Positions 2,610-37,364 of a stretch of DNA of 40,000 bases are shown one piece after another. The notes under the pieces were generated by a model. That model was not told the DNA's origin, ran no database searches, and saw nothing but the letters and a program-made list of their open reading frames with translations. How positions within the stretch are numbered: position 1 is the first letter of the stretch; each line of letters opens with the position of its first letter. Source of the stretch: Bacillota bacterium (GTDB lineage Bacteria; Bacillota; Clostridia; TANB77; CAG-465); contig JAEWPS010000011.1 in the NCBI GenBank assembly GCA_023460515.1, positions 8,023-48,022 of the forward strand, given 5' to 3'. The position numbers and the translations under genes are program-made.

Positions 2610-2703
2610 AATATATTCCTCCTTAAAATTCATATTAATTACTACTTTTTCTTTAGTTGTTATATACAATTTTATGATAAATCATAAAATAAATATTCAA
2701 TTT

Positions 2704-13698: not shown

Positions 13699-13760
13699 AA
13701 GTTCACCTCATGCAAATATTATATCATATGTTTTTTAAAATTAAAAGAAATATATTAATT

Positions 13761-13797
13761 AAAAAACAAAAGATACCACTTTTATCAAGAGGTATCT
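13761..13797 (-). terminator. Rho-independent terminator after the 411-aa gene
   Basis: AGATACC/GGTATCT stem followed by TTTGTTTTTT on the minus strand. Confidence 0.7.
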
Positions 13798-13806
13798 CAT
13801 TGTAAA

Positions 13807-15042
13807 TTATAATATATAAAGTGCTACACGAAATGATAGACTACCATTTGCTGAATTATCCGTCCTACCAACACGATAAGACGCTGGATTGGTACTACCT
13901 GAATTGTTATAATAACCACCCCTATCAAAGCAAACTGATATCATATACATTTCATTTGTCCATTCTGTTGTATTTCCCGCTAAATCATATATATTATTTG
14001 CTTTCCAATATTCGCTAAATCCTGTAACTTGTAACGTTCCATTACCTGTAACATTTGCAGGTGATGTTGAATCTTTATAATTTCCCCATGATGAGGAATT
14101 AGTTGATACATTTATGCTAGAATTTTCTAGCCATTTCATGGTTGTATCCCATTGTGTTCCTGTTACAAGTCCACTTTTAACTTCTGCTGTTGTATACATT
14201 GATTCAGCTGCCACTTTTGCATTACTGTAATTTATATTATTCCAAACCGTTGCAAGTTTTTTACTAACTAATATATTAGTATCTTGTTTACCCGCCTCAT
14301 ATCTTGCTATATAGAAACCTCCATATTTAGATATTTGGTCTATTTCACTTATTATTCCCGTTGGTAATGTATCATCTATTGATGGTGTATATGAAAATCC
14401 TTTTGTACACCATTTTAAATAAGTTACATTTGTTCCATCTACTGGTACCCATACAAATTGGTTTCCTTTATCATCTTCTATTACTAATCCTTTATTCCAA
14501 TCTGTTGGCCATATTGCACCATCATTTATTGCTTTAAATCCTTTTGGTATTAATGGGTTATTATATGCCACAACTAACCCGTTTACAGTTGAGTTAACTT
14601 GTGCTATAGTATTTACCCCTAACCCTTGTTGCAATGGAAGAGTTGTACCTTCATTTGATAGTCTCATTTCTTCAAACCAATCTTTTTCTTTTTGAACTGT
14701 TCCAACATAAACTAAAGTACCTTTTTGTATTTCAAATTTTTTTCCATCTTCTAGTGATATACTAGTTATATATTGCTTAATTGTATTGGTCACGTCTCCA
14801 CCATTCCAAATACTTTTGTTAAATGTATTTGGATTAAATGTATTATCTTGTAGATACATATTTGATATAGCAATTGCAAGTTCTGAATTATATTCACTTA
14901 TATTAGACTTAAAAACTGCTATATTTGCTTGTTCTATAGAATTATTATTTATAAAATTTAGCATTACAGCACCTGCTACTATTATTATAACTATTATTGT
15001 TATAACTAATAATATTAATGATATACCTTGATTTCTTTTCAA
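13807..15042 (-). CDS. Prepilin-like-leader protein with C-terminal FGE-sulfatase (SUMF1)-fold domain, 411 aa
   Basis: TTG start with GGAGGA 8 nt upstream. N-terminus is MKRNQG-ISLILLVITIIVIIIVAGA. C-terminal motifs are GNQFVWVPV, GFYIARYEA, GTQWD, NIYDLAGNTTEWTNE, RGGYY and SFRVALY. It is a paralogue of the 815- and 782-aa proteins. Confidence 0.85.
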   Translation of the reverse strand: MKRNQGISLILLVITIIVIIIVAGAVMLNFINNNSIEQANIAVFKSNISEYNSELAIAISNMYLQDNTFNPNTFNKSIWNGGDVTNTIKQYITSISLEDGKKFEIQKGTLVYVGTVQKEKDWFEEMRLSNEGTTLPLQQGLGVNTIAQVNSTVNGLVVAYNNPLIPKGFKAINDGAIWPTDWNKGLVIEDDKGNQFVWVPVDGTNVTYLKWCTKGFSYTPSIDDTLPTGIISEIDQISKYGGFYIARYEAGKQDTNILVSKKLATVWNNINYSNAKVAAESMYTTAEVKSGLVTGTQWDTTMKWLENSSINVSTNSSSWGNYKDSTSPANVTGNGTLQVTGFSEYWKANNIYDLAGNTTEWTNEMYMISVCFDRGGYYNNSGSTNPASYRVGRTDNSANGSLSFRVALYIL

Positions 15043-15109
15043 TTAAAGTTCCTCCAATTCTTCAATTATATGAAAATTATAATATTCATATAATTGAACT
15101 AATTTAAAA

Positions 15110-15138
15110 ATTATATAATATATTTATTTTTTTGTCAA
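15110..15138 (-). promoter_or_regulatory. Putative promoter of the 411-aa gene
   Basis: Minus strand: TTGACA (15138-15133), 17 nt, TATAAT (15115-15110). Confidence 0.55.
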
Positions 15139-15241
15139 CGAATTAATAGAAAGTTTTACATTTTTGTATAATTTTGTAATATTTAGTTGATTATTTAGAT
15201 TAATATAATTTTCACTAAATTTGAAATCTATAATAATTTTA

Positions 15242-15272
15242 TAAAAAAATAGCCCAGATTTTTTCAATCTGA
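15242..15272 (-). terminator. Weak terminator after the 131-aa gene
   Basis: CAGATT/AATCTG stem (15255-15260 / 15266-15271), followed on the minus strand by GGCTATTTTTTT. Confidence 0.4.
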
Positions 15273-15283
15273 ACCATTTAAAA

Positions 15284-15679
15284 TTACATTCCCAGTTTGT
15301 ACTTTTCAATAAACCTCTTTGTGCCCATACCTTTTGCATTTGAACGATCAATTGCATTCCAAATTGCTCTTGATACGCTAAGCTCTGTAACAGAATAAAT
15401 TTCTGCAATTGCAGGATAAACATCCTTAGACAAAGAGTATTTTTCTTTATTCTTCAATTTCTCATATACAATATTAATTGCACTAACAAGGTAATTAAAC
15501 CCACTGCCATTAAGGGAAATTTTGTTATTTAAAAGATATTTTCTTATATCAGGATTATCTAACTTATTCTTTTTAATTTTCCTTTTATTATTTGTTATAA
15601 TATAATCAGCTTCTTTAATGTTAGTTGTTATCCGAATTAATACATCTTCACCAATAAATACATTTACTACTTTTTTCAT
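15284..15679 (-). CDS. Receiver-less Spo0A C-terminal-domain-like protein, 131 aa (divergent)
   Basis: The C-terminal half (GFNYLVSAINIVYE...LSKDVYPAIAEIYSVTELSVSRAIWNAIDRS) is collinear with the Spo0A DNA-binding domain (IKGY.YL..AI......L.....LYP.IA......S.VERAIRHAIE). The N-terminal ~35 aa are shared with the 177-aa and 53-aa neighbours. Confidence 0.7.
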   Translation of the reverse strand: MKKVVNVFIGEDVLIRITTNIKEADYIITNNKRKIKKNKLDNPDIRKYLLNNKISLNGSGFNYLVSAINIVYEKLKNKEKYSLSKDVYPAIAEIYSVTELSVSRAIWNAIDRSNAKGMGTKRFIEKYKLGM

Positions 15680-15736
15680 TAGAATCTTCCTTTCACAAAA
15701 ATTATTTTATGATAATTTCGATTATTCAATGATAAT

Positions 15737-15765
15737 ATTATATATCAATTTACATAAAAAGTCAA
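15737..15765 (-). promoter_or_regulatory. Putative promoter of the 131-aa gene
   Basis: Minus strand: TTGACT (15765-15760), 17 nt, TATAAT (15742-15737). Confidence 0.55.
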
Positions 15766-15781
15766 TCCAAATTTAAAATAT

Positions 15782-15816
15782 ACAGAAAAACAACCTCACA
15801 AATTTGTAAGGTTGTT
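15782..15816 (-). terminator. Rho-independent terminator after the 177-aa gene
   Basis: AACAACCT (15789-15796) pairs with AGGTTGTT (15809-15816). TTTCTGTA follows on the minus strand. Confidence 0.6.
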
Positions 15817-15831
15817 CATGTTTATGTATTT

Positions 15832-16365
15832 TTATTTTTTAAGTCTAAATTCCTCAGCTATGCCAGAAAGAAATTCAGAATTTGTAGACTTCGTTTTACC
15901 GGAAGCAAGCGGCAAGACAAAAAGTCTATTTAACACCTCTTTATTTCCTCTGTTAAATGATATTTCAATACCGTGCCTTATTGCACGCTCTACTTTATTT
16001 GGAGTTGTTTTGAATATTTCTGAGACTTTTGGATAAAGATCTTTAGTAACCGAGTTAATTATATCCGGGTCGTTTATAAGAATTTTTATTGCCTCAATTG
16101 TATATCTATACCCTTTTATGTTCGGCAATATTCCAATGCTTATAAGCAGTTCAGAAATATCAATTTCAAGCTGATTTGATTTTTCTACCTTTGGATTATT
16201 TGAAGACGTAGTCTCCAGTTTTTTAACAGTTTCTTTAAAAGCAGATGTTGAGGTTATTGTACCATCACCATTTATTATAAAATCAGCCTTTGTCGGATCA
16301 GTTGTTATCCGAACAGCTACCTCTTCGCTTTCAAAATATACACTAATAGTTTTAATTTTTTCCAT
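15832..16365 (-). CDS. Receiver-less Spo0A C-terminal-domain protein, 177 aa
   Basis: Residues ~65-177 (IGILPNIKGYRYTIEAIKILINDPDIINSVTKDLYPKVSEIFKTTPNKVERAIRHGIEISFNRGN...KTKSTNSEFLSGIAEEFRL) match the Spo0A C-terminal DNA-binding domain nearly motif for motif, including ERAIRH and PTNSEFI-like. The N-terminus is only ~40 aa, not a CheY-like receiver. Confidence 0.87.
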   Translation of the reverse strand: MEKIKTISVYFESEEVAVRITTDPTKADFIINGDGTITSTSAFKETVKKLETTSSNNPKVEKSNQLEIDISELLISIGILPNIKGYRYTIEAIKILINDPDIINSVTKDLYPKVSEIFKTTPNKVERAIRHGIEISFNRGNKEVLNRLFVLPLASGKTKSTNSEFLSGIAEEFRLKK

Positions 16366-16419
16366 AATTTTTCTCTCCTTTTAAATTTTTAATTAGAAAT
16401 AAAATAATATACAAATAAT

Positions 16420-16448
16420 ATTATACTATAACACAGCAAAAAAGTCAA
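16420..16448 (-). promoter_or_regulatory. Putative promoter of the 177-aa gene
   Basis: Minus strand: TTGACT (16448-16443), 17 nt, TATAAT (16425-16420). Confidence 0.6.
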
Positions 16449-16461
16449 TACTTATGTAAAT
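16441..16461 (-). repeat. 21-nt exact direct repeat, copy 1 (covers the -35 box and upstream flank)
   Basis: AAAGTCAATACTTATGTAAAT is identical to 16742-16762. Confidence 0.9.
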
Positions 16462-16501
16462 CTAAGTGTTTTTATAACCTATTTTAGCTGTATCTCACCA
16501 T

Positions 16502-16663
16502 TCATTTTGCAAATATATAATAATCTGTTGGATCATTTGGAAAAATTGCCATTATAGTTCCATTGCCTTTTATTATTATGTCCGCCTTTTCTAAATTATT
16601 TCCTATTTTAATACTTAGATTATCACTTTCAAAATATACTTCTACTAATTTACATTTTTTCAT
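16502..16663 (-). CDS. 53-aa protein made only of the N-terminal module of the Spo0A_C-like paralogues (not in ORF track)
   Basis: Own translation: MKKCKLVEVYFESDNLSIKIGNNLEKADIIIKGNGTIMAIFPNDPTDYYIFAK. It aligns with MEKIKTISVYFESEEVAVRITTDPTKADFIINGDGTITS of the 177-aa protein. It has RBS AAGGAGAG and its own promoter. Confidence 0.55.
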   Translation of the reverse strand: MKKCKLVEVYFESDNLSIKIGNNLEKADIIIKGNGTIMAIFPNDPTDYYIFAK

Positions 16664-16720
16664 AATCTATATCTCTCCTTTTTAAATTATTACATAAGGA
16701 TTAATTTTGTTTAGACGTTA

Positions 16721-16749
16721 ATTATATATTAATTTATTACTAAAGTCAA
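16721..16749 (-). promoter_or_regulatory. Putative promoter of the 53-aa ORF
   Basis: Minus strand: TTGACT (16749-16744), 17 nt, TATAAT (16726-16721). Confidence 0.55.
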
Positions 16750-16762
16750 TACTTATGTAAAT
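16742..16762 (-). repeat. 21-nt exact direct repeat, copy 2
   Basis: AAAGTCAATACTTATGTAAAT is identical to 16441-16461. Confidence 0.9.
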
Positions 16763-16780
16763 TAAAATGTGCATGAGCTA

Positions 16781-16820
16781 TTAAAAAATAAAAGGTATGT
16801 TAAAAAACTAACATACCTTT
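16781..16820 (-). terminator. Rho-independent terminator after the HIT gene
   Basis: AAAGGTATGTT (16791-16801) pairs with AACATACCTTT (16810-16820). TATTTTTTAA follows on the minus strand. Confidence 0.7.
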
Positions 16821-16842
16821 TATTATTATATTTCTATATAAA

Positions 16843-17193
16843 CTATTCGTGAACTATTTTTTCACCAAGATGTCTACCACCTAATAAGTGAAAATGTATA
16901 TGATTAACTACTTGACCACCATCTTCACCGCAATTGCAAATAACTCTATATCCAGATTTATCTACACCAGATAATTTTGCAACTTCTTTTATAGCAAGAT
17001 ATACTTGTTTTATATATTCACTATTATCTACAGTTACATCATTCATACATGAAATATGTAACTTAGGAATTACTAAAACATGAACTGGAGCTACTGGATG
17101 TATATCTTTAAAAGCTAAAACATATTCATTTTCATATACTTTTTCAGAACCTACTTCACCCTTTATTATTTTACAAAACAAACAATTATCCAT
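16843..17193 (-). CDS. HIT family nucleotide hydrolase (HinT-like)
   Basis: N-terminal CLFCKII and the histidine triad NHIHFHLLGG. It lies 8 nt downstream of alaS. Confidence 0.9.
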   Translation of the reverse strand: MDNCLFCKIIKGEVGSEKVYENEYVLAFKDIHPVAPVHVLVIPKLHISCMNDVTVDNSEYIKQVYLAIKEVAKLSGVDKSGYRVICNCGEDGGQVVNHIHFHLLGGRHLGEKIVHE

Positions 17194-17201
17194 GATTCCT
17201 C

Positions 17202-18962
17202 CTATTTAACAAATACTGCTTTTATTCTTCTTACACCTGATGATACTGCTTCTTCTTTTAAAATTTTAATATGCTCTAGTTTAGAAGTATTATCTACATG
17301 TGGTCCACCACATATTTCTTTTGAGAAACCTTCTATTGTATATACTTTTACACTCTCACCATATTTACTATCGAATACGCCTTTTGCACCATATTTTCTA
17401 GCTTCATCAAGTAACATCTCTTGAAAACTCACTGGTAATTTCTTATCTATTTGTTCATTAACCATGTTTTCTACTTGATCTAAAATTTCTCTAGTTACTT
17501 TTTCAGGATGTGAAAAATCAAATCTAATTCTCTCTGCAGTTATATTTGAACCTTTTTGTGATACATGATCTCCTAGTATTCTTTGTAATGATTCAAGTAT
17601 TAAATGAGCAGCTGTGTGGTATTTTGTAGTTTCTTCACTATGATCAGCAAGACCACCTTTAAATATTCCTTCTGCTCCTTCACGTGATTTTGCTTGATGT
17701 TCTTCATAACATATTTTAAATCCATCCATATCAATAGAAAAACCATTTTCTTTAGCAAGCTCAGCAGTTACTTCTGGTGGAAATCCATATGTATCATATA
17801 ATCTAAATACCGCAGTACCTTCAATTAAGTTTGTATTTTCATCTTTTAATTTATTTGTCAATTTAGTAAATTCTTTTTCACCACTTAATAATGTGTTCAT
17901 AAATCTATTTTTTTCTTTTATTATTTCTTCTAATATAACATCTTTATTTGTTACTAATTCTGGATACATATCTTTTAAACTACTTATAAGAGTTTCAATA
18001 ACCTCATTTATTTTATCTGGATTAACACCAATTTTTCTCATATGCCTTATTGTTCTACGTATTAATCTTCTTAAGATATAACCTTGACCAATATTACTTG
18101 GAGTCACAAAGTCACATATAAGTAGTGCTGAAGCTCTTAAATGGTCCGCAATTATTCTAAGTGAAGCATCTTCTGGATTTTCACTAATTTCTCTTACCTT
18201 AGATATTATTGGCATAAACAATTCAGTTTCAAAAATATGATTTTTTCCTTGCATTAAAAATGTAATTCTTTCAAGACCCATTCCTGTATCAACATTTTTT
18301 TGAGATAATGGAACGAAACTTCCATCTTCTTTTTTGTTATATTCCATAAAAACGTTATTCCAAATTTCAATATATTTTCCACAATCACATGAAGGATTAC
18401 AATCATCTGAGCATTTTGGAACACCAGTATCTAAAAATATTTCTGTATCTGGTCCACATGGCCCAGTTTGACCTGCTGGTCCCCACCAATTATCTTTTTT
18501 TCCAAAAAAGTATATTCTAGATTTATCTATTCCACACTCTTCCCAAATTTTTGCAGACACATCATCTTTAGGAGCATCATTATCTCCAGCAAAACATGTA
18601 ACAGATATTTTGTAAGCAGGAATATTTAATTCTTTTGTTAAAAATTCAAAACTATATTTTATTGAATCTTCTTTAAAGTAATCTCCAAGTGACCAATTTC
18701 CTAACATTTCAAAAAATGTTAAATGTCTATTGTCACCTACTTCATCTATATCATCAGTTCTTAAACATTTTTGAAAATCTACAAGTCTTTTACCCTCAGG
18801 ATGTGACTCACCCACAAGATATGGAACAAGAGGATGCATACCAGCTGTTGTAAATAAAACAGTTGGATCGTTTTCTGGCACTAGCTTTGCTCCAGATATT
18901 ACCTTGTGATTTTTGCTTTCAAAAAATTTCAAATATTTATTTCTTATTTCTATTGCTTTCAT
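17202..18962 (-). CDS. alaS: Alanine--tRNA ligase, short form (586 aa, ends after the editing domain)
   Basis: Class II AlaRS N-terminus (IRNKYLKFFESKNH...LFTTAGM...FFEMLGNWSLGDYFK). Editing-domain motifs HTAAHLI and CGGPHV. The protein ends at ...SSGVRRIKAVFVK, with no C-Ala extension. Confidence 0.85.
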   Translation of the reverse strand: MKAIEIRNKYLKFFESKNHKVISGAKLVPENDPTVLFTTAGMHPLVPYLVGESHPEGKRLVDFQKCLRTDDIDEVGDNRHLTFFEMLGNWSLGDYFKEDSIKYSFEFLTKELNIPAYKISVTCFAGDNDAPKDDVSAKIWEECGIDKSRIYFFGKKDNWWGPAGQTGPCGPDTEIFLDTGVPKCSDDCNPSCDCGKYIEIWNNVFMEYNKKEDGSFVPLSQKNVDTGMGLERITFLMQGKNHIFETELFMPIISKVREISENPEDASLRIIADHLRASALLICDFVTPSNIGQGYILRRLIRRTIRHMRKIGVNPDKINEVIETLISSLKDMYPELVTNKDVILEEIIKEKNRFMNTLLSGEKEFTKLTNKLKDENTNLIEGTAVFRLYDTYGFPPEVTAELAKENGFSIDMDGFKICYEEHQAKSREGAEGIFKGGLADHSEETTKYHTAAHLILESLQRILGDHVSQKGSNITAERIRFDFSHPEKVTREILDQVENMVNEQIDKKLPVSFQEMLLDEARKYGAKGVFDSKYGESVKVYTIEGFSKEICGGPHVDNTSKLEHIKILKEEAVSSGVRRIKAVFVK

Positions 18963-18983
18963 AAAATTCTCCCTAATTATTTT

Positions 18984-20576
18984 CTAATTCATCTCATTAA
19001 ATATTTTTGTTCCCCATTTTTTTAGTATAGTATATTGTATCATAATAATAAATAAAAGTAAAGTAAAAATAAGTAAAACGTATATGTCAATAGATATCTT
19101 TAAAGCCATATACAATGCACCAAGTCCAAAAAAGAAAACTAATGGTACCATTATACCTAAAAAACTGCTAAGGCTTTGTTTTACAACTTGTGTATATGAA
19201 ACAAAGTCTAATCTAGGATATTTTAAATTGATAATTATACCAAACATAGAACATGTAATATTAGAAAATACAGCTAATAATATGACTATTAACGTTTGTA
19301 AAATTGTCATTTTAAAAGATATACCAAACAATATTATAGATAAAATCATTACTGGTAAAACAATTAACATATTTACAACTATTTTACTTAAAAATATATC
19401 TTTAACTTTAATCGGCATTGTTTTTAATATCCAGAAATTTTTACCTTCTATAGATATACTACATGCGGCTGTATTTGACATTGCTATACTAAAAGCAACT
19501 ACTGGGATAAGTAAAAGATAAATAGGCATCATACCCACATCAATTTCCATCATTTTAAATAAAACATCTTTATCATAAAACATTGTTGCTATACTTGCAA
19601 AAAATATAAGTACAACTCCAAAAGATGTATTTAATATGTATATAGGTATAGAAAAATACATTTTCAATTCTTTTAAAATCAAAGTAGTCAATACACCTTT
19701 TTGAGTATGTTCTTTTTCTATATAATTGCTTTTTGCATTTTCAACTTTTAAATTTTGAACAATTTTAACATATGAATTCTTAAATATAAACACAAATAAC
19801 CACGCAGACGCAACGTTTGCAATTATATAAATGAATAAATCTTTTATACTACCATTGGATATAACCTCCATAAAACTGTTAATTATAAATCCAATCGAAC
19901 TTAATATTTTATTTACAAGTTCTACATTATTTACGAATTTCAAAGCTAAGCTTTGTATATTAAATGATACATACATAATTAGTAGCACAGCTAGGTACGT
20001 TAAAATAGTTTCAAATATTTTTTTACTTTTAACCTTTGATGTTAAGTATCCTATTATATATCCAAATATACAACCTAGAATTGTTGGTAAAAGTGGCATA
20101 AATAAATAAGATACAAAAGCAAGTAAATAATATGTAATACCTAGTTTAAGTGTAACTCCATATGTTATAAAAGCGGGTACAAATATTATTGTAGTTACAA
20201 TATAACTTATTAATGTAAGAACTATAATTCTACTTGTCAGTATAGTACTAGGTTTTATAGGCATAGCAAATATATTATCTTCCGAATTAAATAAGTACGA
20301 TTTTGCCCTATAAATAGTACTATAGAATATGCTAAAACTACATACAAAATATACTAATGGTAGTACATATTTTTCAAGTCCATATTTAACTAAAAAATTA
20401 ACTCCCATATACGTATACATTCCAACAGAAGTAAATAGCGAACTAATAAGAAATACAAAAACAATTATCATTCCTATATTTTTAAATACATTTTTACTTC
20501 CTTTAATTTTATTTAAAGATAATGTTCTTACTAAATCAACTTTTAGAAGTAATAATAGTTTTGACATATTATTCAT
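18984..20576 (-). CDS. Polytopic membrane protein, putative ABC-2-type exporter permease
   Basis: 530 aa, hydrophobic throughout (about 12 helices by eye). Its start overlaps the stop of the upstream ABC ATPase by 8 nt. Confidence 0.7.
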   Translation of the reverse strand: MNNMSKLLLLLKVDLVRTLSLNKIKGSKNVFKNIGMIIVFVFLISSLFTSVGMYTYMGVNFLVKYGLEKYVLPLVYFVCSFSIFYSTIYRAKSYLFNSEDNIFAMPIKPSTILTSRIIVLTLISYIVTTIIFVPAFITYGVTLKLGITYYLLAFVSYLFMPLLPTILGCIFGYIIGYLTSKVKSKKIFETILTYLAVLLIMYVSFNIQSLALKFVNNVELVNKILSSIGFIINSFMEVISNGSIKDLFIYIIANVASAWLFVFIFKNSYVKIVQNLKVENAKSNYIEKEHTQKGVLTTLILKELKMYFSIPIYILNTSFGVVLIFFASIATMFYDKDVLFKMMEIDVGMMPIYLLLIPVVAFSIAMSNTAACSISIEGKNFWILKTMPIKVKDIFLSKIVVNMLIVLPVMILSIILFGISFKMTILQTLIVILLAVFSNITCSMFGIIINLKYPRLDFVSYTQVVKQSLSSFLGIMVPLVFFFGLGALYMALKISIDIYVLLIFTLLLFIIMIQYTILKKWGTKIFNEMN

Positions 20577-21279
20577 CTCCTAACGTAGACATAAATACAT
20601 CTTCAAGAGATGCATCTTTTGTTATATCTTCTATATTTCCAATTTTAACAATTTTTCCTTTATTTATAATTGCAATCTTATCACACAGTTTTTGAACAAC
20701 TTCTAAAACATGTGAAGAAAAGAATATACTAACACCTTTACCACATAATTCTTTCATAATTTCTTTTAACTTAAATTGAGCCTTAGGATCAAGTCCTACA
20801 AATGGTTCATCTAAAATTAGTATTTTGGGACTATGTATTAACGCAGATATAATTGCTATTTTTTGTTTCATTCCATGAGAATATGAAGATATCACACTAC
20901 CTAGATTATCATATATTTCAAGTTCTTTTGCATATTTATCTATTAATTCACGTCTAATAGTTTTATCTACACTATAAACATCTCCAACAAAATTTAAATA
21001 CTGAATTCCTGTTAAATTTTCGTAAACATCTGGATTATCTGGTATATATGCCATCATAGATTTACACCTAATTGGATCATCTTTTATATTAAGTCCATCA
21101 ATATAAATATTTCCACTTTCAAAAGATAAAATACCAACTATACACTTTATTGTGGTTGTTTTACCTGCACCATTATGACCAACAAATCCAAATATTTCAC
21201 CTGGATTTACATCAATAGATATATCATCTACAGCAATTTTATCCCCATATTTTTTAGTTAAATTAGTTATTCTTAACAT
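20569..21279 (-). CDS. ABC transporter ATP-binding protein (ABC-2 subfamily type)
   Basis: Walker A GHNGAGKTT, signature YSHGMKQKIAI, Walker B ILILDEPFVGLD. Confidence 0.9.
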   Translation of the reverse strand: MLRITNLTKKYGDKIAVDDISIDVNPGEIFGFVGHNGAGKTTTIKCIVGILSFESGNIYIDGLNIKDDPIRCKSMMAYIPDNPDVYENLTGIQYLNFVGDVYSVDKTIRRELIDKYAKELEIYDNLGSVISSYSHGMKQKIAIISALIHSPKILILDEPFVGLDPKAQFKLKEIMKELCGKGVSIFFSSHVLEVVQKLCDKIAIINKGKIVKIGNIEDITKDASLEDVFMSTLGDE

Positions 21280-21342
21280 TTATATTCCCCCTTCAAAGTT
21301 ATATATAATATTTCAGATCATATATAATCATTATAAATAATA

Positions 21343-22221
21343 TTACCAATTAGCATTTACTTTAGAGTATTTTAAATAATTAATATACTCACTCATAGGC
21401 ATACTTCTATTTGCATAAATTCTTGGTATATTGTATTTACTGTGTACTTTAGAATTATACACCCCTCCAAGCATATTTAACCCATATGAATAATTCTCTT
21501 TTACAATTTCTACTACTTTATTATTATAATCACCAATTGGATAACAAAAAACAGTACTGCTTAAATTAAACAAATCCTTTAATACTCTTTTAGAATCAAT
21601 AATTTCTGTACTTGCTTGGTTAATTGGTATTTTACTCAAATATGGATGACTTAAAGAATGTGATTGTATATCTATAATTCCACTTTCTTTCATCTCTTTT
21701 ATTTGCTCAGTTGTTAAATAATTTGGTCCATTTATATAATTTGTTATAACATATATGCTAGCTTTTAAATTATACTTTTTAAATAATGGAAAAGCATTAT
21801 TGTAAAAATATACAAAACAATCATCAAATGTTAATGCAACTGGTTTGGTATACTTGTATAACTTATCTATATCAGTTATATAAACAGTCTGGTATCCATT
21901 ATCCACTATATATTTTAAATGTGTCTCCAATTTTGAAGGTGAAAAATAATTTTCAGTATCTGTAGCATTTCCGTAATCATCTGTAATAAAATGATACATA
22001 AATATAGGCATAGTAAAACTAAAATTTTTAGGTTTTATTATATCCTCTATAATTTTTTCTTTAGCAACATAAGCATTAATTTCATCTATATCGGTATATA
22101 AATTATTGCTATGTTCTTTTACTAAAACTTTATTAAAGCAAAAAAAGCAAATTAAAATTGTAGCAACAATTAATAAAGTTATAATTATTGAAATATAATT
22201 TGCTTTTTTTATTATTTTCAT
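21343..22221 (-). CDS. Polysaccharide deacetylase (CE4 family), membrane anchored
   Basis: N-terminal TM helix, then CE4 motifs LTFDDCF and HSLSHPYL. Confidence 0.82.
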   Translation of the reverse strand: MKIIKKANYISIIITLLIVATILICFFCFNKVLVKEHSNNLYTDIDEINAYVAKEKIIEDIIKPKNFSFTMPIFMYHFITDDYGNATDTENYFSPSKLETHLKYIVDNGYQTVYITDIDKLYKYTKPVALTFDDCFVYFYNNAFPLFKKYNLKASIYVITNYINGPNYLTTEQIKEMKESGIIDIQSHSLSHPYLSKIPINQASTEIIDSKRVLKDLFNLSSTVFCYPIGDYNNKVVEIVKENYSYGLNMLGGVYNSKVHSKYNIPRIYANRSMPMSEYINYLKYSKVNANW

Positions 22222-22269: not shown

Positions 22270-24717
22270 CTAAAAAATATATAATGCTGGTCTAAATGAT
22301 ATATTATCTTGAGACGTTGTAGCAGCGTAATTAAGACGATTTGAAGCGCAATATGTTGAAGATACATCAGTATAACTTCCGCCTCTTAACATATAGTAAC
22401 CAGCTGTATACATTTCATTTGTCCATTCCCATGTGTTACCAGCTAAATCATATATATTTTTTGCTTTCCAATAGTCACTAAATCCTGATATTTGCAAAGT
22501 TCCAAATCCAACTATATTAGCTGGTGATATTGAATTTGAATAGTTACCCCAGTTTCCGCTATTTGTTATATTAATTCCTGAATTTTGTATCCATTTCATT
22601 AATGAATCCCATTGTGTTCCAGTTACCAAATTAGTTATAACTTTAGTTGGGTCATACCCGTAATTTGCCGCCATATTTTGTGAATATGTTTTAGAATCTG
22701 CATAATTTATGAAGTTAAATAAATATCCTGTATACGTTGTTCCTCTAACCCAGCTACTAGATATTTTGTTAGCAGATTTTTTACTTGCAACTCTTATATT
22801 TCCACTATTATAATCAAACATTGCTTCATATCTTGCAATATAAAATCCTTTATATTTAGTTATTTGGTTTGCCTCATTAGTTATTGCTGCCGGTAATGTA
22901 TCATTTGATATATTTACATTATTATATGCTACTCCAGTTGTGCACCATTTTGCATATGGAACACTAGTTCCATCAACTGGTACCCAAACAAACTGATTAC
23001 CACTTGTATCTTGAATAACTAATCCATTATTCCAATCTGCTGAAACATTATTCCAATTTGCTTCCGCAGTATTTATGGCTACAAAACCTGCAGGTATTAC
23101 TGGATTATTGTACGTTGGCATTTTACCAGTAATTGTTGAATTTTGAGATAATGCAACTCCTGGATTTGTTTCTGTTCCTGGTGCATTTGCTTTAATATAA
23201 TTTAGGTTAACACTAACTATTCTAGTTTCTGTTATTGTATTATCATAGTTTACTGCAACCATTTTTATAAATGCATTGTCCGCAGTAAAATTTGTAAAAG
23301 GAGTGTTTTGCTTAGTTGTTATTCCATTTGTTGTAGTATTTAATGTATATACTTGTTCATCTGTAAAAGTTACTCCATCTATACTTTTAGAAAAAGTTAC
23401 AGATTTAATACCATTAACGCTATACATTTTTGCGGTTAATTGAACTGATTCTTTTGTAGAATTATCTAATGTATAACCAATATATAATCTTGGAGCTATT
23501 TCTTGATTATATAAGTTAACATTACCAGCTTTATCTATTACAGCTATCTTTATGCTTCTTATATTTTTAGCTGCATTAATTGTTGTTGTTAAATCACTTG
23601 TAACTTTAGCACTTTTTGCTTTACTTAGCATATATGCAGTATCAAAATCAGTAATCCCATTATAATAATTTTCAATTGTTGCGTTATCTGTATATTTAGT
23701 TAAATATTCATATCTAACTTCTTTTATTCCACTTTCTGAACTAGATAAATTTATTTTAACTGTATTGATTGATGAATATGATGAAATCGTTGCACTTGTT
23801 ATTGTTGGAAGAGTTTTACTAAAGTTAGATAAATCTATCCTTACTTTTCCAATTACATCTGAACCTTTGTATTTTAATATGTCTACATACCTGTCAATTA
23901 ATGGTTTTGTACCTAGTTCTATATAGTTTACTTCTGCTAGTGTAAGTGTTGGTACTTTTATTGTTTCACTATCACTTACTATTGATGAAAGTAAGTTAAA
24001 ACCAAATGTATTTTTTCCAACTGTTGTTGTTATTAGTCTATTTGTATCTCCACTTACAGACATATATAAAAGTTCATCTGCAGCCATTTCTGCTTCAATG
24101 CTTACACCCATTTTGTTAGCCCATCCGTTAATTTTAGTTAATTTTATACCACCAGATGTCGTAACAACAGTTGAAGATTTATCTGTTTGCTCTCCATATA
24201 TTTGAACTACATTAGATATTTTTGATGTTATTGAAAAATATATTTGTCCCTTAGCCTGTAATCCATATGGGTAATATGCATGCATAGATGGATACGCAAC
24301 AACAAATATATCTCCTGCACCTAAATCACCGTTTCCATATGGTATTTTAGTAACATTTATTTTAGCAAGATCTATTTTATAAAATTGTGAATTTAAATCA
24401 TTGTTATCGGTAATTTCTTCTAATAATACATCTTGAGATCTTGCAATTGCAAGCAACTCATCTTTAGTAAGTGCAGTAGAGTCTGCTACTAAAGGCATAA
24501 CATTATTTGTTATATAGTAACTTTCTGTAGAATCTTGTATTTCAGCTAAATTCTTAGAGAAAGTTGTTATGTTTGCATCATCTATAGCACTTAAAGTAGA
24601 AACTGTAACAGTTGCAACAAGTATTAATGCGACAATTATAGTTATTATTAAAACTATTAAAGAAATACCTTTCTTATTAGTAGTTTTGTATAAATATTTT
24701 TCATTTCCGTTATTCAT
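22270..24717 (-). CDS. Large prepilin-like-leader protein with beta-rich stalk and C-terminal FGE-sulfatase (SUMF1)-fold domain, 815 aa
   Basis: N-terminus is ...TTNKKG-ISLIVLIITIIVALILVATV. The middle region is alignable with the 782-aa neighbour. C-terminal motifs are GNQFVWVPV, GFYIARYEA, GTQWD, NIYDLAGNTWEWTNE, RGGSY and SFRPALY. RBS AGGTGA is present. Confidence 0.85.
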   Translation of the reverse strand: MNNGNEKYLYKTTNKKGISLIVLIITIIVALILVATVTVSTLSAIDDANITTFSKNLAEIQDSTESYYITNNVMPLVADSTALTKDELLAIARSQDVLLEEITDNNDLNSQFYKIDLAKINVTKIPYGNGDLGAGDIFVVAYPSMHAYYPYGLQAKGQIYFSITSKISNVVQIYGEQTDKSSTVVTTSGGIKLTKINGWANKMGVSIEAEMAADELLYMSVSGDTNRLITTTVGKNTFGFNLLSSIVSDSETIKVPTLTLAEVNYIELGTKPLIDRYVDILKYKGSDVIGKVRIDLSNFSKTLPTITSATISSYSSINTVKINLSSSESGIKEVRYEYLTKYTDNATIENYYNGITDFDTAYMLSKAKSAKVTSDLTTTINAAKNIRSIKIAVIDKAGNVNLYNQEIAPRLYIGYTLDNSTKESVQLTAKMYSVNGIKSVTFSKSIDGVTFTDEQVYTLNTTTNGITTKQNTPFTNFTADNAFIKMVAVNYDNTITETRIVSVNLNYIKANAPGTETNPGVALSQNSTITGKMPTYNNPVIPAGFVAINTAEANWNNVSADWNNGLVIQDTSGNQFVWVPVDGTSVPYAKWCTTGVAYNNVNISNDTLPAAITNEANQITKYKGFYIARYEAMFDYNSGNIRVASKKSANKISSSWVRGTTYTGYLFNFINYADSKTYSQNMAANYGYDPTKVITNLVTGTQWDSLMKWIQNSGINITNSGNWGNYSNSISPANIVGFGTLQISGFSDYWKAKNIYDLAGNTWEWTNEMYTAGYYMLRGGSYTDVSSTYCASNRLNYAATTSQDNISFRPALYIF

Positions 24718-24735
24718 ATTTAATCACCTGTGTAT

Positions 24736-24764
24736 ATTTTACACTGAAATAGATAAAAAATCAA
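24736..24764 (-). promoter_or_regulatory. Putative promoter of the 815-aa gene
   Basis: Minus strand: TTGATT (24764-24759), 17 nt, TAAAAT (24741-24736). The flanks are conserved with the 782-aa gene promoter. Confidence 0.5.
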
Positions 24765-24800
24765 TACTATTTAAATTTATTTTATTTATTTTATAAATCC

Positions 24801-24849
24801 TATAAAAATAGTAACCATTTAAAGTATTTTTTTACTCAAATGATTACTA
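24801..24849 (-). terminator. Putative terminator after the 782-aa gene
   Basis: 12-bp stem with one mismatch (24809-24820 / 24838-24849), a 17-nt loop, then TTTTTATA on the minus strand. Confidence 0.45.
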
Positions 24850-24853
24850 TTAT

Positions 24854-27202
24854 TTATTTTAAATATAAAGCACATCTAAAACCTAGATTAGCATTTTTTG
24901 TACCTATTGACGTCGATCTACGATATGAAGAAGGATAATTTTTTCCAGTACTGCCATAAGAACCACCACGATTTATATAATTATTATTTAATGCTTCCAT
25001 TGTCCATTCATATTCGTTACCTGCCATATCATAAATATTGTTAAATTTATATGATGAATTTGATCCTGTTAATTCTAGTTTATTGCTATAGTTACCATAT
25101 CCAGTAGAGTTTATAACATATGTACTATTTACCTCTTTTATAAACTCAAGCGCTGCATCCCATTGTACACCATATATAAGATTTGATGATATATCCGTTG
25201 TATTATACATACTTCTTGCAACTTTAACAGCCCCATCTCCTGGATTTGTTATCTCTTTTGTTTCACCCCATCTTATATAATTCCATGTTCCACGTCCTGC
25301 TTTAGATACTGGTTTTATAGAACCATCTGAGATTGTTTTATGATCATTTTTTGTAGGAACAGTTATACTATCTATGCCAGCTTCATATCTAGCAATATAA
25401 AATCCTCCATTATCTCTTACGCTCTTATATATCTTATCTAATTCCGTTGCATTTGATAAACCATCCCAACTAGCTTCTACACACGTAGATATTTTTGAGC
25501 CTTTATTGTATTCAACTCTTACAAATTTACTAAAATCTTTTACTGGTATCCACACAAATTCATTTTTACTAATATTATCTACTATTACTAATCCTGTACT
25601 TACCTCTTGCTCTCCAATTAAAGTTGATTTACTAAATCCATATGGAATCTTTGGACTATACCACGTTGATGCTGGTTTATAATCTTCTAAGCTAGTGTTT
25701 ATTATTCTTGTCTCTGTCAAAGAACCGTCATAATTTACTGCTGAAATTTTTATATATGCAAAATTTTGAGATATATTTTTATATGGTAAACATTGTATAT
25801 ATGTTGTACCATTTATCGTTGTATTCAATGTATATATTTGCTCGTCAGTAAAATTTATTCCATCTAAACTCTTAGAAAAGCTTATAGTTTTAACACCATT
25901 AGCACTAAATACCTTTGCTGTTAATTGTAATGATTCTTTTATGTAACTGTCTATACTATATCCTATATATAATTTAGGAGCTATTTCTTGATTATATAAA
26001 TTAACATTATTTGCTTTATCTATTAATGCTACTTTTATACTTTGCACATTTTTTGGCACTTTAATTATAGTCGCTGCATTGTTAGTAATATTAGATTTTT
26101 TTCCATTACTTATCATATAATTTGAATCAAAATCTGTAACATTATCATAATACCTTTCTATTGTTCCATTATTTGTGTATTTTGTTAAATATTCATATCT
26201 TACTTCTCTAATACCGCCATCAGTGATATTTAAAGATAAATCCACTTGGTTTGATGAAGAATTCGATGAAATAGTAGCTTTTTTTATGCTTGGAGGAATT
26301 TTATTGAAATTGGACAAATCTATTCTTGTTTTATCTACAATGTCATTATTCTTATATTTCAATATATCTACGTATCTTTCAGAAACTGGCTTAGTACCAA
26401 GATCTATATAGTTGGCTTCATTCAAAGTAAGATCTGGAATTTTTATATTCTCTACTCCGCCAACTATTGAAGAAAGAGAATTAAATTTAAATGTATTTTT
26501 ACCTATACTTGTTTCAATAAGTCTATTGGTAGATCCACTCACTGACATAAATAAGGTTTCATTTTGGTCCATGTTTACTTCTATATTTACATCCATTTTG
26601 TTTACCCAACCACTTGCTTGAGTAACATTTATCTTTTCTAACAAAGGTAAACCATCTACCGGATTAGATAGTTCCTCTTGATTCAATTTTGTAACGCTTG
26701 TTATCTTATCTGTTATTGAAAAATATGTATTATTATTTGTACTAAATCCATATGGATAATATACATTCATAGAAGGATATGAAATAACAAATATATCATT
26801 TTCACCATACTTTTTTAATCCATATGGCGTGTTTGTAATATTTATTTTGTTAAGATCTATAGTATAAAACTGTGAGTTTAAATCATTGTTTTTTGTAATT
26901 TCTTCTACTAATATATCTGAAAATCTTGAGATAGATAAAAACTCATCTTTATTCATTAACTCTGAACCATTTAATGAAGGTATTACGTTATTACTTATAT
27001 AATAACTCTCAATAGAATCTTGTACTTTATTTAAATCTTTTGCAAATGTGGTTAATTTTGCAGTATCTATAGCGTTAGAAGCTGAAACAAATATAGTTGT
27101 TGCTAATATTGACAAAACAACCATAGATACTATCAAAATAACTAGTGATATTCCACTTTTTAAATTAATCATGTGCAAATTATCTTTAACCTTATTAATC
27201 AT
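24854..27202 (-). CDS. Large prepilin-like-leader protein with beta-rich stalk and divergent C-terminal FGE-sulfatase-fold domain, 782 aa
   Basis: N-terminus is ...INLKSG-ISLVILIVSMVVLSILATT. C-terminal motifs are NEFVWIPV, GGFYIARYEAG, GVQWD, NIYDMAGNEYEWT, RGGSY and LGFRCALY. It is a tandem paralogue of the 815-aa gene. Confidence 0.85.
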   Translation of the reverse strand: MINKVKDNLHMINLKSGISLVILIVSMVVLSILATTIFVSASNAIDTAKLTTFAKDLNKVQDSIESYYISNNVIPSLNGSELMNKDEFLSISRFSDILVEEITKNNDLNSQFYTIDLNKINITNTPYGLKKYGENDIFVISYPSMNVYYPYGFSTNNNTYFSITDKITSVTKLNQEELSNPVDGLPLLEKINVTQASGWVNKMDVNIEVNMDQNETLFMSVSGSTNRLIETSIGKNTFKFNSLSSIVGGVENIKIPDLTLNEANYIDLGTKPVSERYVDILKYKNNDIVDKTRIDLSNFNKIPPSIKKATISSNSSSNQVDLSLNITDGGIREVRYEYLTKYTNNGTIERYYDNVTDFDSNYMISNGKKSNITNNAATIIKVPKNVQSIKVALIDKANNVNLYNQEIAPKLYIGYSIDSYIKESLQLTAKVFSANGVKTISFSKSLDGINFTDEQIYTLNTTINGTTYIQCLPYKNISQNFAYIKISAVNYDGSLTETRIINTSLEDYKPASTWYSPKIPYGFSKSTLIGEQEVSTGLVIVDNISKNEFVWIPVKDFSKFVRVEYNKGSKISTCVEASWDGLSNATELDKIYKSVRDNGGFYIARYEAGIDSITVPTKNDHKTISDGSIKPVSKAGRGTWNYIRWGETKEITNPGDGAVKVARSMYNTTDISSNLIYGVQWDAALEFIKEVNSTYVINSTGYGNYSNKLELTGSNSSYKFNNIYDMAGNEYEWTMEALNNNYINRGGSYGSTGKNYPSSYRRSTSIGTKNANLGFRCALYLK

Positions 27203-27222: not shown

Positions 27223-27250
27223 ATTCTACACTAAATTATAAAAAAATCAA
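27223..27250 (-). promoter_or_regulatory. Putative promoter of the 782-aa gene
   Basis: Minus strand: TTGATT (27250-27245), 16 nt, TAGAAT (27228-27223). Confidence 0.5.
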
Positions 27251-27342
27251 TACTATTTATGTAATTCACTTTCTTTATAATAACAATTCATTTAATATTT
27301 TTCTTTCTTTTAAAACTTTTTATACTTGTTTAACCTTATTGC

Positions 27343-29117: not shown

Positions 29118-29546
29118 TTATTGTGCTTTTTCAACTTTTACTTCATATGAATAAGATTTAGAAAAATCTCCTGTTATAGAAGACGAAAAACCTTTTTTCT
29201 CTCCAGCTGCTAAATTTTCTATTAATCCTTTAGCTGTTGATAAAGCAACCTTATCTTTATCATAGAATATTACACTAATATCTACCATAGAATAAGTAAT
29301 ACTAGAATTATTTGTTACTTGTGCAGTAACATTAGTCATAGTACCATCACTTGTAATGCTAACTTCTGAAACGTCTACATCACCTTGTTTTGATTCAGTA
29401 ATATTTTTAGCCGTTGTTCCATTTGCATTGTTATCAACATTTTGCTGACTACCATTATTGTTTTTGTTTAAATTTGTAACTACTAAAACTATTACTAATA
29501 TGGCTACTATTAATAATAATATAGGCATTATCCCTTTTGATTTCAT
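29118..29546 (-). CDS. Membrane-anchored small protein, possibly FxLYD-domain-like
   Basis: Start set at ATG 29546 (GGAGGA 8 nt upstream), giving MKSKGIMPILLLIVAILVIVLVV. The C-terminal beta-rich part contains VIFYDKDKV...LAAGEKKGF, reminiscent of the FxLYD family (from memory). Confidence 0.6.
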   Translation of the reverse strand: MKSKGIMPILLLIVAILVIVLVVTNLNKNNNGSQQNVDNNANGTTAKNITESKQGDVDVSEVSITSDGTMTNVTAQVTNNSSITYSMVDISVIFYDKDKVALSTAKGLIENLAAGEKKGFSSSITGDFSKSYSYEVKVEKAQ

Positions 29547-29798
29547 CCTTGTAATCCTCCCCTCAAAACTTATAATATATAAGTACATTTTTAATTTTAG
29601 CATATTTTTATAAATTATGCAAGTAATAATTAATTACTTTTTTATTTTTTTATTTTATGTTATAAATTTGTAATTTTATAGTAACAAAAAATAGCAAAAA
29701 TATAATTTTTACTGTTTTTTTATGTTTTTCAACATTTAACTTGAAAAAAAAATAATTATATAATAAAATATACTTATATTATATTTATGGAGGTAAAT

Positions 29799-37005: not shown

Positions 37006-37364
37006 TGGTGGAGACGGCGAGAGTTGAACTCGCGTCCGAAAATTCGTTCATATAGACTTCTCCGAGTGCAGTATGCATTTAATTTAAAACTTAATATACT
37101 CTAACACATACATAAAACATATATTAGTTTAGTTACATATTATACCCATCGATCAGCAACTAGAATCGATTTTGTTATTCCAGAATCAATGATGCTTATA
37201 CAAAACCTCTGGCAAGTTCCGTATAAACAAGCTTCTTATTAACTAAGCAGCAAATGCAAATTCTTTATCTGCGTTTATATTTTTCTCTCGTTTTTATAGT
37301 GGCCCACGAGAATCCACTACTCGCTATCCATACTTCAAAATATTCGTCGATACCTTTCGTCCCC
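37006..37364 (-). ncRNA. ssrA: tmRNA (SsrA), 359 nt including encoded CCA
   Basis: 5' end GGGGACGAAAGGTATCGACG. 3' end GGACGCGAGTTCAACTCTCGCCGTCTCCACCA (T-arm plus acceptor). The acceptor stem has a G3:U70 pair. Tag ORF at 37272..37243 is GCA GAT AAA GAA TTT GCA TTT GCT GCT TAG = ADKEFAFAA*. Confidence 0.93.

Follow-up and report, generated by a model that had tools for sequence, protein, structure and literature searches.

Three genes in the window, that is, the whole stretch of 40,000 nucleotides analysed here, encode proteins which may well be N-terminally anchored, pilin-derived display proteins with variable lectin-like binding modules. We regard this as the best explanation of the data while granting it somewhat less than an even chance. 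The first-pass annotation offered two alternatives, modular pilins or adhesins anchored in the membrane, and this is still the right pair. The three genes, called A, B and C here, with the architectures predicted for their products, are:

22270..24717, minus strand: gene A, 815 aa; pilin-like head lacking Glu5, three beta-sandwich domains and an A-subtype C-terminal module (ORF, Pfam, AF2)
24854..27202, minus strand: gene B, 782 aa; pilin-like head lacking Glu5, three beta-sandwich domains and a B-subtype FGE/CLec-like module (ORF, Pfam)
13807..15042, minus strand: gene C, 411 aa; short pilin-like head and FGE/CLec-like module (motif scan)

A and B had been described as a tandem pair of minus-strand ORFs of 815 and 782 aa. 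Both are present and adjacent, all ten of the motifs quoted from them occur in A and in B, and the 23-nt DNA identity at 23492 and 25977 is exact. The pair is not alone, however: C is a third member within the window and the genes are part of a very large multigene family. The similarity between A and B is likewise more extensive than the first 500 or so residues originally indicated, since BLASTP covers their whole length with 46% identity (56% in the head, 60% in the stalk and 33% in the C-terminal module, or C-module). Judged by this alignment, A and B are paralogues. C, which starts with TTG and has a GGAGG sequence 8 nt upstream, is 51% identical to the C-module of A (BLASTP). The upstream regions of A and B have a 19-nt element in common; the promoter-like site of A lies within it, and that of B occurs with it:

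24736..24773, minus strand: promoter-like site of gene A, TTGATT-17-TAAAAT; a consensus match only
27223..27259, minus strand: promoter-like site of gene B, TTGATT-16-TAGAAT; a consensus match only

No terminator was found between A and the CE4 and ABC genes which follow it. This had been observed before, but says little because the scan found only one terminator in 9 kb where 1.6 were expected.

The N-terminal part of the proteins carries most of the argument. In A, it is composed of three segments:

24667..24717, minus strand: leader, residues 1–17, MNNGNEKYLYKTTNKKG, ending in the invariant G17 (alignments)
24505..24666, minus strand: alpha-1, residues 18–71, within an AF2-predicted helix at residues 16–71 and matching pilins in register
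24214..24504, minus strand: globular head, residues 72–168, with two short helices and four beta-strands in the AF2 model (pLDDT about 80–93)

A, B and C each start with a leader that is short and basic, followed by an invariant Gly, the residues I-S-L-I-V-L and about 28 uncharged residues. The junction between G and ISLIV in A is a putative prepilin-peptidase site; the corresponding Gly of C is Gly6. In alignments with homologues down to about 31% identity, G-1, L+3 and L+6 are invariant and I+1 is almost so. The leader has a median length of 9 residues (range 4–37) and, as in type IV pilins, is short and basic with a Gly preceding the hydrophobic segment. The uncharged run after the Gly, first estimated at about 20 hydrophobic residues, has a median of 28 residues (range 21–38), which is long enough for a stable membrane anchor. 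Alpha-1 of A includes a hydrophobic alpha-1N with Val at +5 and then an amphipathic alpha-1C ending in YY..NN..P. As a sequence pattern, this N-terminus is real and far beyond chance.

The hallmark Glu at +5 is indeed missing, as noticed at the outset. Position +5 is of the V/A type in 62/62 close homologues and is V, I, A, S, T, M, Y or L in the wider family, where the census includes the representatives with a parsable N-terminus (n = 133); it is never E or D. To our knowledge, Glu5 is held to be necessary for every type IV pilin subunit except the filament cap. The pilin-like character of the region was nevertheless borne out by profile comparison. A profile of residues 1–170 searched against the PDB retrieved only pilins at E < 0.1 (Geobacter PilA-N, 3.3e-5; S. 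sanguinis PilE1, 0.009; GspG, 0.023), aligned with G-1 on G-1 and in register through alpha-1C, the pilin Glu5 being opposite Val. The GspG model TIGR01710 gave weak matches in 18 of 19 family members (with B in the alignment), the best of which, at 6.8e-6, is far below the cut-off. From these profiles, alpha-1 is homologous to type IV pilin alpha-1. Neither A, B nor any of the 19 members matched Pfam N_methyl (PF07963) or TIGR02532, and the family fails the PilFind rule ([GAS]-x4-[DE], <350 aa) both at +5 and in length. The head of A is conserved in 145 clusters at E ≤ 1e-30.

Downstream of the head, A and B carry a stalk and all three proteins end in a C-module:

23203..24171, minus strand: stalk of A, residues 183–505, three beta-sandwich (FN3/Ig-like) domains (AF2, Foldseek)
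22273..23157, minus strand: C-module of A, residues 521–815, FGE/C-type-lectin fold (AF2 pTM 0.82)
24857..25654, minus strand: C-module of B, residues 517–782, 33% identical to the A module (BLASTP; Pfam)
13810..14595, minus strand: C-module of C, residues 150–411 (BLASTP; Pfam FGE-sulfatase E 0.011)
22303..22362, minus strand: most variable ungapped stretch by column entropy, A residues 786–805, from RGGSY to SFR; candidate ligand-binding loop

The stalk of A is matched by Foldseek to RbmA, to fibronectin FN3 and to complement MG domains. For the C-module, Pfam FGE-sulfatase scores 24.6 bits on A, just above the gathering score of 23.3, and 20.5 bits on B (residues 712–778), below it. Since these matches span only the final 60–70 residues of A and B, the fold of the whole module comes from structure prediction. 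Foldseek matches of the A module are PvdO, CarF, pFGE, TvpA, FGE, PorK and Mtd, with a probability of 1.0 for PvdO, pFGE and FGE at low TM-scores of 0.3–0.4; the TM-scores of the module's fold matches are low overall (0.3–0.45). A PDB profile search also matches FGE-fold structures, as expected of an FGE-sulfatase fold. Pfam on A, the PDB profile and AF2 with Foldseek are in agreement on the FGE/C-type-lectin fold proposed initially. The best fold matches are to members other than FGE itself, to DGR variable proteins and to the tips of phage tail fibres; with the latter, the resemblance is at the level of the fold only.

To call the module cysteine-less, as was done at first, is loose wording, since A has two Cys and B has three, but the catalytic pair is absent. 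None of the Cys columns is invariant or nearly so, the best being shared by 5/17 sequences, and the region of the FGE Cys pair contains a single Cys in A and none before GFRC in B. With no conserved Cys pair, the C-module is therefore not an FGly-forming enzyme, and the window ORFs scanned contain no sulfatase domain. The variable stretch at residues 786–805 probably occupies the position of the FGE Cys pair.

The fold of the C-module is also that of pFGE (SUMF2), T. denticola TvpA, Bordetella phage Mtd, PorK/GldK, PvdO and tail-fibre tips, all of which are without the catalytic Cys pair. In TvpA, Mtd and tail fibres it forms a distal, variable ligand-binding module. Unlike TvpA and Mtd, the present family shows no template repeat, reverse transcriptase (RT) or adenine-biased mismatches and no phage context, and it varies by paralogy and module swapping. 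A DGR variable protein was rejected on the same grounds: the 3′ ends are without a template repeat and the window is without an RT domain. The only repeat of the 3′ ends, a 98-nt, 86% match between A and C, represents ordinary paralogy, with mismatches on all four bases. A phage or prophage receptor-binding protein was also rejected, there being no relative in IMG/VR, no tblastn match in 50,697 phage records and no meaningful PHROG. An anti-phage defence system was discarded with no PADLOC match. C-terminal modules are swapped between family members. Some members have a ConA-like, Listeria-Bacteroides repeat, Ice_binding or CBM2 module instead, all of them building blocks typical of adhesins or lectins.

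The family is very large, lineage-restricted and uncharacterised, and is found in uncultured Clostridia. MAGs with family genes include GCA_028684095.1 (JAQUGQ01), JAQSXK01, GCA_036681025.1 and GCA_028692955.1. A comparison by DnaK gave only MAGs labelled "Clostridia bacterium", at 80–89% identity. It includes 922 clusters at E ≤ 1e-10, and gene C has 5,682 relatives of the short type at E ≤ 1e-5. There are at least 27 paralogues in the MAG PHD15, where they represent about 2% of the genes. A single-protein scan of genome contigs with a family query gave only five loci. Complete head-only ORFs of about 160 aa also exist, although they are a minority among the representatives. PGAP labels several paralogues "SUMF1/EgtB/PvdO family nonheme iron enzyme". 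In the literature, we found no paper on a pilin-FGE protein or on a Glu5-less family in Firmicutes beyond the catalogue entry discussed below.

Family genes occur in tandem arrays amid housekeeping genes and, as a conserved set of two or three, between tsaE and addA. Gene C is the positional counterpart of the third gene in this tsaE-addA trio; one of the head-only ORFs also occurs as the third gene of the trio. In the window, C is separated from A by an insert:

15284..22221, minus strand: CE4 deacetylase, ABC ATPase, 12-TM permease, AlaRS-like, HIT and two Spo0A_C genes (Pfam)

At three other loci from more distant relatives (L004, L008 and L018; synteny compared with L001, L002 and L013), the family genes directly abut addA without the CE4-ABC block, which is therefore a lineage-specific insertion. 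The suggestion that A forms a cell-envelope module with the CE4 and ABC genes does not survive this comparison, and a role of the block as a conserved functional partner is rejected. By contrast, the statement that the window lacks a pilus ATPase, a platform protein and a prepilin peptidase holds: in Pfam scans, neither the window ORFs nor the 10 kb around each locus inspected contained T2SSE, T2SSF or Peptidase_A24. The 314 kb of DNA examined contained no canonical GxxxxE pilin either.

Modular pilins, where a pilin module at the N-terminus is combined with a binding module, have been described in S. sanguinis as PilB and PilC (Raynaud et al. 2021, Shahin et al. 2023). The combination of a pilin motif with an FGE fold, thought to be new in the first-pass annotation, had already been catalogued as IPR012902-IPR005532, with 8 proteins (Raynaud et al. 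2021, Dataset S1). The Glu5-less family could not have been listed there, since its members fail IPR012902-type models: the extra domains of a modular pilin (FGE-like, beta-sandwich) are present, while the IPR012902-type N-terminal signature is unmatched. Like PilB and PilC, the proteins start with a pilin-type module, continue with a linker or Ig-like domain and end in a binding module, with the same logic of swappable modules; in PilC too, a lectin comes after an Ig-like domain. In PilB and PilC, however, the class III signal peptide is canonical and comes with Glu5, and their genes are part of the pil operon, whereas members of this family lack Glu5 throughout, have their own conserved head and a three-domain stalk, are present in dozens of copies per genome and are unlinked to machinery at the loci seen. 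A second resemblance is with GspK/PilK ("K") and S. sanguinis PilA, whose alpha-1 is pilin-like and without Glu5, GspK having an extra domain. These differ from the family in that there is one per system, encoded with Glu5-bearing partners in machinery operons, and no sequence similarity to GspK or PilA was found beyond alpha-1.

In the explanation that we prefer, the proteins would insert into the membrane in a prepilin-like manner, N-in/C-out, and a prepilin peptidase of the A24 type would probably cut off the leader behind the Gly. Without Glu5, they could not be built normally into the body of a type IV filament, and alpha-1N would consequently hold each protein in the membrane, either singly or in a small oligomer, for example the trio of the locus. 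The stalk would push the lectin-like module outward through the wall, and the module would bind a ligand, most likely a glycan or surface polymer, via its hypervariable C-terminal loops. Paralogues and swapped modules could then provide a repertoire of specificities. [quoted passage not shown] In the available part of the source (PMC3047682), class III signal peptides on non-filament archaeal surface proteins provide a precedent, and the Sulfolobus sugar-binding proteins have, as here, a Glu5-less prepilin-type N-terminus on many diverse surface binders. The likeness would be functional only; the bindosome is archaeal and dependent on PibD and the Bas system, and its passenger domains are not homologous. 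Several observations count against surface display of this kind. The tsaE-addA trio resembles minor-pilin tip complexes (PilABC, GspIJK), and most Firmicutes encode type IV filament machinery (PMC3244431). The globular head, kept even in the head-only proteins, exceeds what an anchor needs and hints at subunit–subunit assembly. The low TM-scores of the fold matches for the C-module weigh on the same side.

The main rival is that these are true modular minor pilins, cleaved by a prepilin peptidase, which prime or cap a type IV filament of the pil or com type encoded elsewhere; we consider it unlikely, though a serious contender. The absence of Glu5 would then mark the top subunit and the paralogues would be different adhesive tips, joining the PilB/PilC idea to a GspK- or PilA-like cap. 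The in-register homology to pilins and GspG would fit, as would the pilin-like head that is predicted to be retained and an invariant G-1 with conserved positions +1 to +7, as for a shared peptidase or assembly partner. Literature precedents are the capping K subunit and PilA without Glu5, modular pilins predicted at tips and the catalogued pilin-FGE architecture. The conserved trio recalls tip complexes, and it is common for pilin genes to stand as orphans away from the biogenesis operons. Known systems, however, have a single Glu5-less subunit per tip, while here Glu5 is missing in all members, including the whole trio, the paralogues of PHD15 and head-only proteins. In addition, the genes are never beside filament machinery at inspected loci, canonical pilins are missing from the DNA examined and all members fail the N_methyl, TIGR02532 and PilFind criteria. 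A Glu5-independent, archaeal-style filament of their own, with head-only proteins as bulk subunits, the giants as decorated subunits and machinery not linked so far, appears improbable. It would account for complete head-only ORFs, one of them the third gene of the trio, and for the conservation of alpha-1N, which is higher than in other parts of the protein; archaeal pilins and archaellins do polymerise without Glu5. Against it are the lack of an ATPase or platform gene linked at any locus, the lack of a known bacterial precedent and the small number of head-only genes among representatives.

Two further explanations concern the N-terminus and the C-terminal domain. That the N-terminus is a conventional Sec signal peptide or a signal anchor left uncleaved, making these secreted or anchored lectins with no tie to pilins, has a marginally smaller probability than such a filament. 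No curated pilin model is reached and small residues follow the hydrophobic run (in B, S-N-A before I). But an invariant Gly precedes this run even in homologues at about 30% identity, some 28 uncharged residues are long for a Sec h-region, the predicted helix is continuous from 16 to 71 and the pilin profile alignment runs on through alpha-1C. For the C-terminal domain, enzymatic activity of the FGE/SUMF1 or EgtB type, which is what the PGAP label of several paralogues implies, is very improbable. The Pfam FGE-sulfatase match agrees with that name, but the module has no conserved Cys column, the window has no sulfatase or ergothioneine genes, the domain would be extracellular and distal in a massively paralogous family, and the best structural matches include the non-catalytic pFGE, TvpA and PorK.

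Tentatively, an uncultured clade of low-GC Clostridia might use the Glu5-less class-III-type N-terminus as a general display device, with dozens of copies per genome and interchangeable lectin-like and adhesin modules, either as membrane-held "pseudopilin stubs" or by a Glu5-independent assembly route. It is equally doubtful, but conceivable, that such a device with a core three-gene tsaE/addA locus would be the counterpart in bacteria of the bindosome-type use that archaea make of prepilin signals. Members of the family are missed or mis-annotated in MAG catalogues because N_methyl, TIGR02532 and PilFind are blind to them and some are misnamed SUMF1/EgtB/PvdO. Hundreds of clusters with a prepilin signature minus Glu5 imply either a huge pool of alternative caps or a prepilin pathway used for anchoring without polymerisation, which has so far been described mainly in archaea. 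Either outcome would widen the view of how monoderm bacteria display adhesins. The size of the family and its modular lectin-like heads suggest that it plays a role when these uncultured Clostridia of guts and digesters attach to a substrate, a host or a partner.

The family examined here joins a pilin-like head without the hallmark residue Glu5 to a variable C-terminal module, in the window one of predicted FGE/C-type-lectin fold. The family is represented in the window by three genes, two of which (A and B) also include a three-domain beta-sandwich stalk between head and module:

22270-24717, minus strand: gene A, ORF of 815 aa
24854-27202, minus strand: gene B, ORF of 782 aa
13807-15042, minus strand: gene C, 411 aa, TTG start with GGAGG 8 nt upstream

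Both giant ORFs lie on the minus strand where the first-pass annotation had placed them, and all the motifs it quoted, together with a 23-nt identical stretch, are present in A and B. Aligned end to end, the two proteins show 46% identity (head 56%, stalk 60%, C-terminal module 33%). Each gene has its own upstream promoter-like site (TTGATT-16/17-TA[AG]AAT), lying within a 19-nt element common to both. Scanning all six translated frames of the window for motifs revealed gene C. It has the same N-terminus as A and B, (M)KRNQG followed by ISLILLVITIIV, and a short head which leads directly into a module 51% identical to that of A.

The family N-terminus is pilin-derived yet lacks the pilin hallmark Glu5. 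In 62/62 close homologues the basic leader, whose length varies, has Gly as its last residue and is followed by [IVM]-[ST]-L-[IVLMAT]-[VA]-L; G-1 (the leader Gly), L+3 and L+6 are invariant in homologues down to ~31% overall identity, and the uncharged run following the Gly has a median length of 28 residues. With a profile of residues 1-170, type IV pilins were the sole matches at E<0.1 among all PDB sequences (Geobacter PilA-N, 3.3e-5; S. sanguinis PilE1, 0.009; GspG, 0.023), and below GspG ranked more pilins (TcpA, Thermus PilA4/PilA5) mixed with short Vpu membrane peptides. The pilin alignments are in register, G-1 over G-1 and Val over Glu5, and extend through the amphipathic half of alpha-1. 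A GspG model gives weak matches, far under the cut-off, in 18 of 19 family members, and Pfam N_methyl matches none of the 19. The AF2 model (pLDDT 82) predicts a single helix over residues 16-71 and a head of two short helices and four strands, followed by a disordered linker and beta-sandwich domains (183-295, 305-406 and 411-504) that match FN3/Ig-like repeats. The derivation from pilins is based on the in-register matches, the weak GspG matches and this predicted helix and head. Among 133 representatives the +5 residue is V (69), I (22), A (12), S (11), T (8), M (5), Y (4) or L (2), and neither Glu nor Asp occurs there in any homologue with a parsable N-terminus. The prepilin-like pattern minus Glu+5 described in the annotation is therefore borne out.

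Pfam FGE-sulfatase covers just the final 60-70 residues of the C-terminal module, slightly over the gathering score in A and under it in B. The family profile for the module matches PorK/GldK, pFGE, TvpA and FGE in the PDB. Its AF2 model (pTM 0.82) matches PvdO, CarF, pFGE, TvpA, FGE, EgtB/OvoA, PorK and phage Mtd with probability 1.0, at TM-scores of only 0.3-0.4; matching viral models are distal tail-fibre domains, one named as a sulfatase-modifying-factor-like domain. Since the family alignment contains no conserved Cys column, an FGly-forming enzyme is ruled out, in agreement with the initial view of an FGE-type domain without the catalytic Cys pair, and we give almost no credence to an active FGE-type enzyme. 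The most variable ungapped stretch of the module, residues 786-805, lies between RGGSY and SFR, which we take to be where FGE has its Cys pair and DGR variable proteins their variable region. No DGR is present, and no phage or defence-system connection was found. Two or three tandem modules of this type can occur on one stalk (family protein P0002, 1,347 aa; 12966-16280 in related locus L018).

At 50% identity the head-module family comprises 145 representative clusters at E<=1e-30, 922 at E<=1e-10 and 6,153 at E<=1e-3, with lengths from ~130 to 2,315 aa. The C-terminal modules are swapped and include FGE-like (1-3 copies), Ice_binding, CBM2, ConA-like Laminin_G_3 and unknown domains, as well as Listeria-Bacteroides repeats and InlB B-repeats. 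Complete genes of ~160 aa encoding the head alone also occur. The short type, that of gene C, has 5,682 relatives at E<=1e-5 and forms tandem arrays of two to four genes set among housekeeping genes. One MAG (locus tag PHD15_) carries at least 24 short-type and 3 long members among at least ~1,500 genes. Family members all come from uncultured MAGs labelled 'Clostridia', 'Bacilli' or 'Tissierellia'. PGAP names some PHD15 members (P0243, P0249, P0258, P0260 and P0285) 'SUMF1/EgtB/PvdO family nonheme iron enzyme', probably a misnomer for short-type paralogues, given the pilin-like N-terminus and the lack of a conserved Cys pair.

In lineages whose family proteins are only ~30% identical, the site flanked by tsaE-tsaB-rimI-LonC and addA holds two or three family genes (812/750/159 aa in L008, 936/1104/521 aa in L018 and 421/897 aa in L004). 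A ~7-kb block (CE4, ABC transporter, AlaRS-like gene, HIT and two Spo0A_C genes) separates the giant genes from the third in the window and in the closely related loci L001, L002 and L013. As the block is absent from L004, L008 and L018, CE4 and ABC are not conserved partners, and the cell-envelope link initially proposed from them is not upheld. The terminator scan found nothing between A and CE4, as had been noted, but this carries little weight because it picked up a single terminator in 9 kb of this DNA (26% GC). Other features of the window are:

765-2669, minus strand: DnaK mechanical ORF, TTG start ~25 codons upstream of the homologues' start
15284-15679, minus strand: Spo0A C-terminal DNA-binding domain only, no receiver domain, 131 aa
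15832-16365, minus strand: Spo0A C-terminal DNA-binding domain only, no receiver domain, 177 aa
17202-18962, minus strand: alanyl-tRNA-synthetase-like protein, 586 aa (tRNA-synt_2c + tRNA_SAD)
29118-29603, minus strand: 161-aa protein, single TM segment, Asn-rich region, no family assignment
37006-37364, minus strand: tmRNA, tag peptide ADKEFAFAA (ARAGORN and Rfam agree)

L001 and L013 also keep the Spo0A_C-only pair next to the locus. The AlaRS-like protein, far shorter than canonical AlaRS (~870 aa), is kept in related loci, and the 161-aa protein, encoded between rimI and the LonC-type protease, is also found in L013. The position of the TTG indicates that the true DnaK start probably lies downstream; the best DnaK relatives are all from Clostridia MAGs (80-89% identity). 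L003 (10001-12166 and 14793-15131), at another genomic site, has a member carrying an Ice_binding (PF11999) C-terminal module in the neighbourhood of genes for A_ENA (endospore appendage) and Amidase_3. In L011, head-only genes (5858-6382 and 12034-12504; 174 and 156 aa) adjoin ABC exporter genes (a DrrA-like ATPase; ABC2_membrane_3 fused to an Rce1-like domain) and are near bofA-sleB-ypeB spore genes. ABC genes thus accompany family members in two unrelated contexts, by chance or otherwise.

Prepilin peptidase cleavage requires the Gly, not Glu5. The window (as first reported) and the DNA up to 10 kb away from each inspected locus yielded no A24 peptidase, platform protein or type IV filament ATPase, and the 314 kb of DNA examined contained no canonical GxxxxE pilin. 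In filaments, the N-terminal amine of a subunit is neutralised by Glu5 of its neighbour, and only the cap (K, PilA) has no such residue (PMC10191384, PMC9934059). The main alternative, that the members are filament-capping modular pilins, draws on the conservation of the head and the grouping of genes in trios; we consider it rather unlikely, as Glu5 is absent from all members, entire trios and dozens of paralogues among them, and the genes lie scattered with no machinery nearby. These observations favour membrane-held display proteins whose stalk carries a variable lectin-like module, a reading we hold tentatively, at somewhat short of even chances. A Glu5-independent autonomous filament is improbable, and an ordinary Sec signal or signal anchor, to be set against the in-register pilin matches, marginally more so. 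As display proteins, the members would be inserted into the membrane as prepilins are, probably with leader cleavage; alpha-1N would hold the protein in the membrane and the stalk would present the module. Archaeal class III-signal surface proteins are analogous to this arrangement.

The pilin and FGE-sulfatase combination, initially thought undescribed, is not itself new: the IPR012902-IPR005532 architecture is already catalogued for 8 proteins (Raynaud et al. 2021, Dataset S1). The novelty lies in a distinct and very large family from uncultured Clostridia that is Glu5-less and is missed by standard pilin detectors; it combines a head and stalk of its own with massive paralogy, swapping of modules and a conserved core locus.
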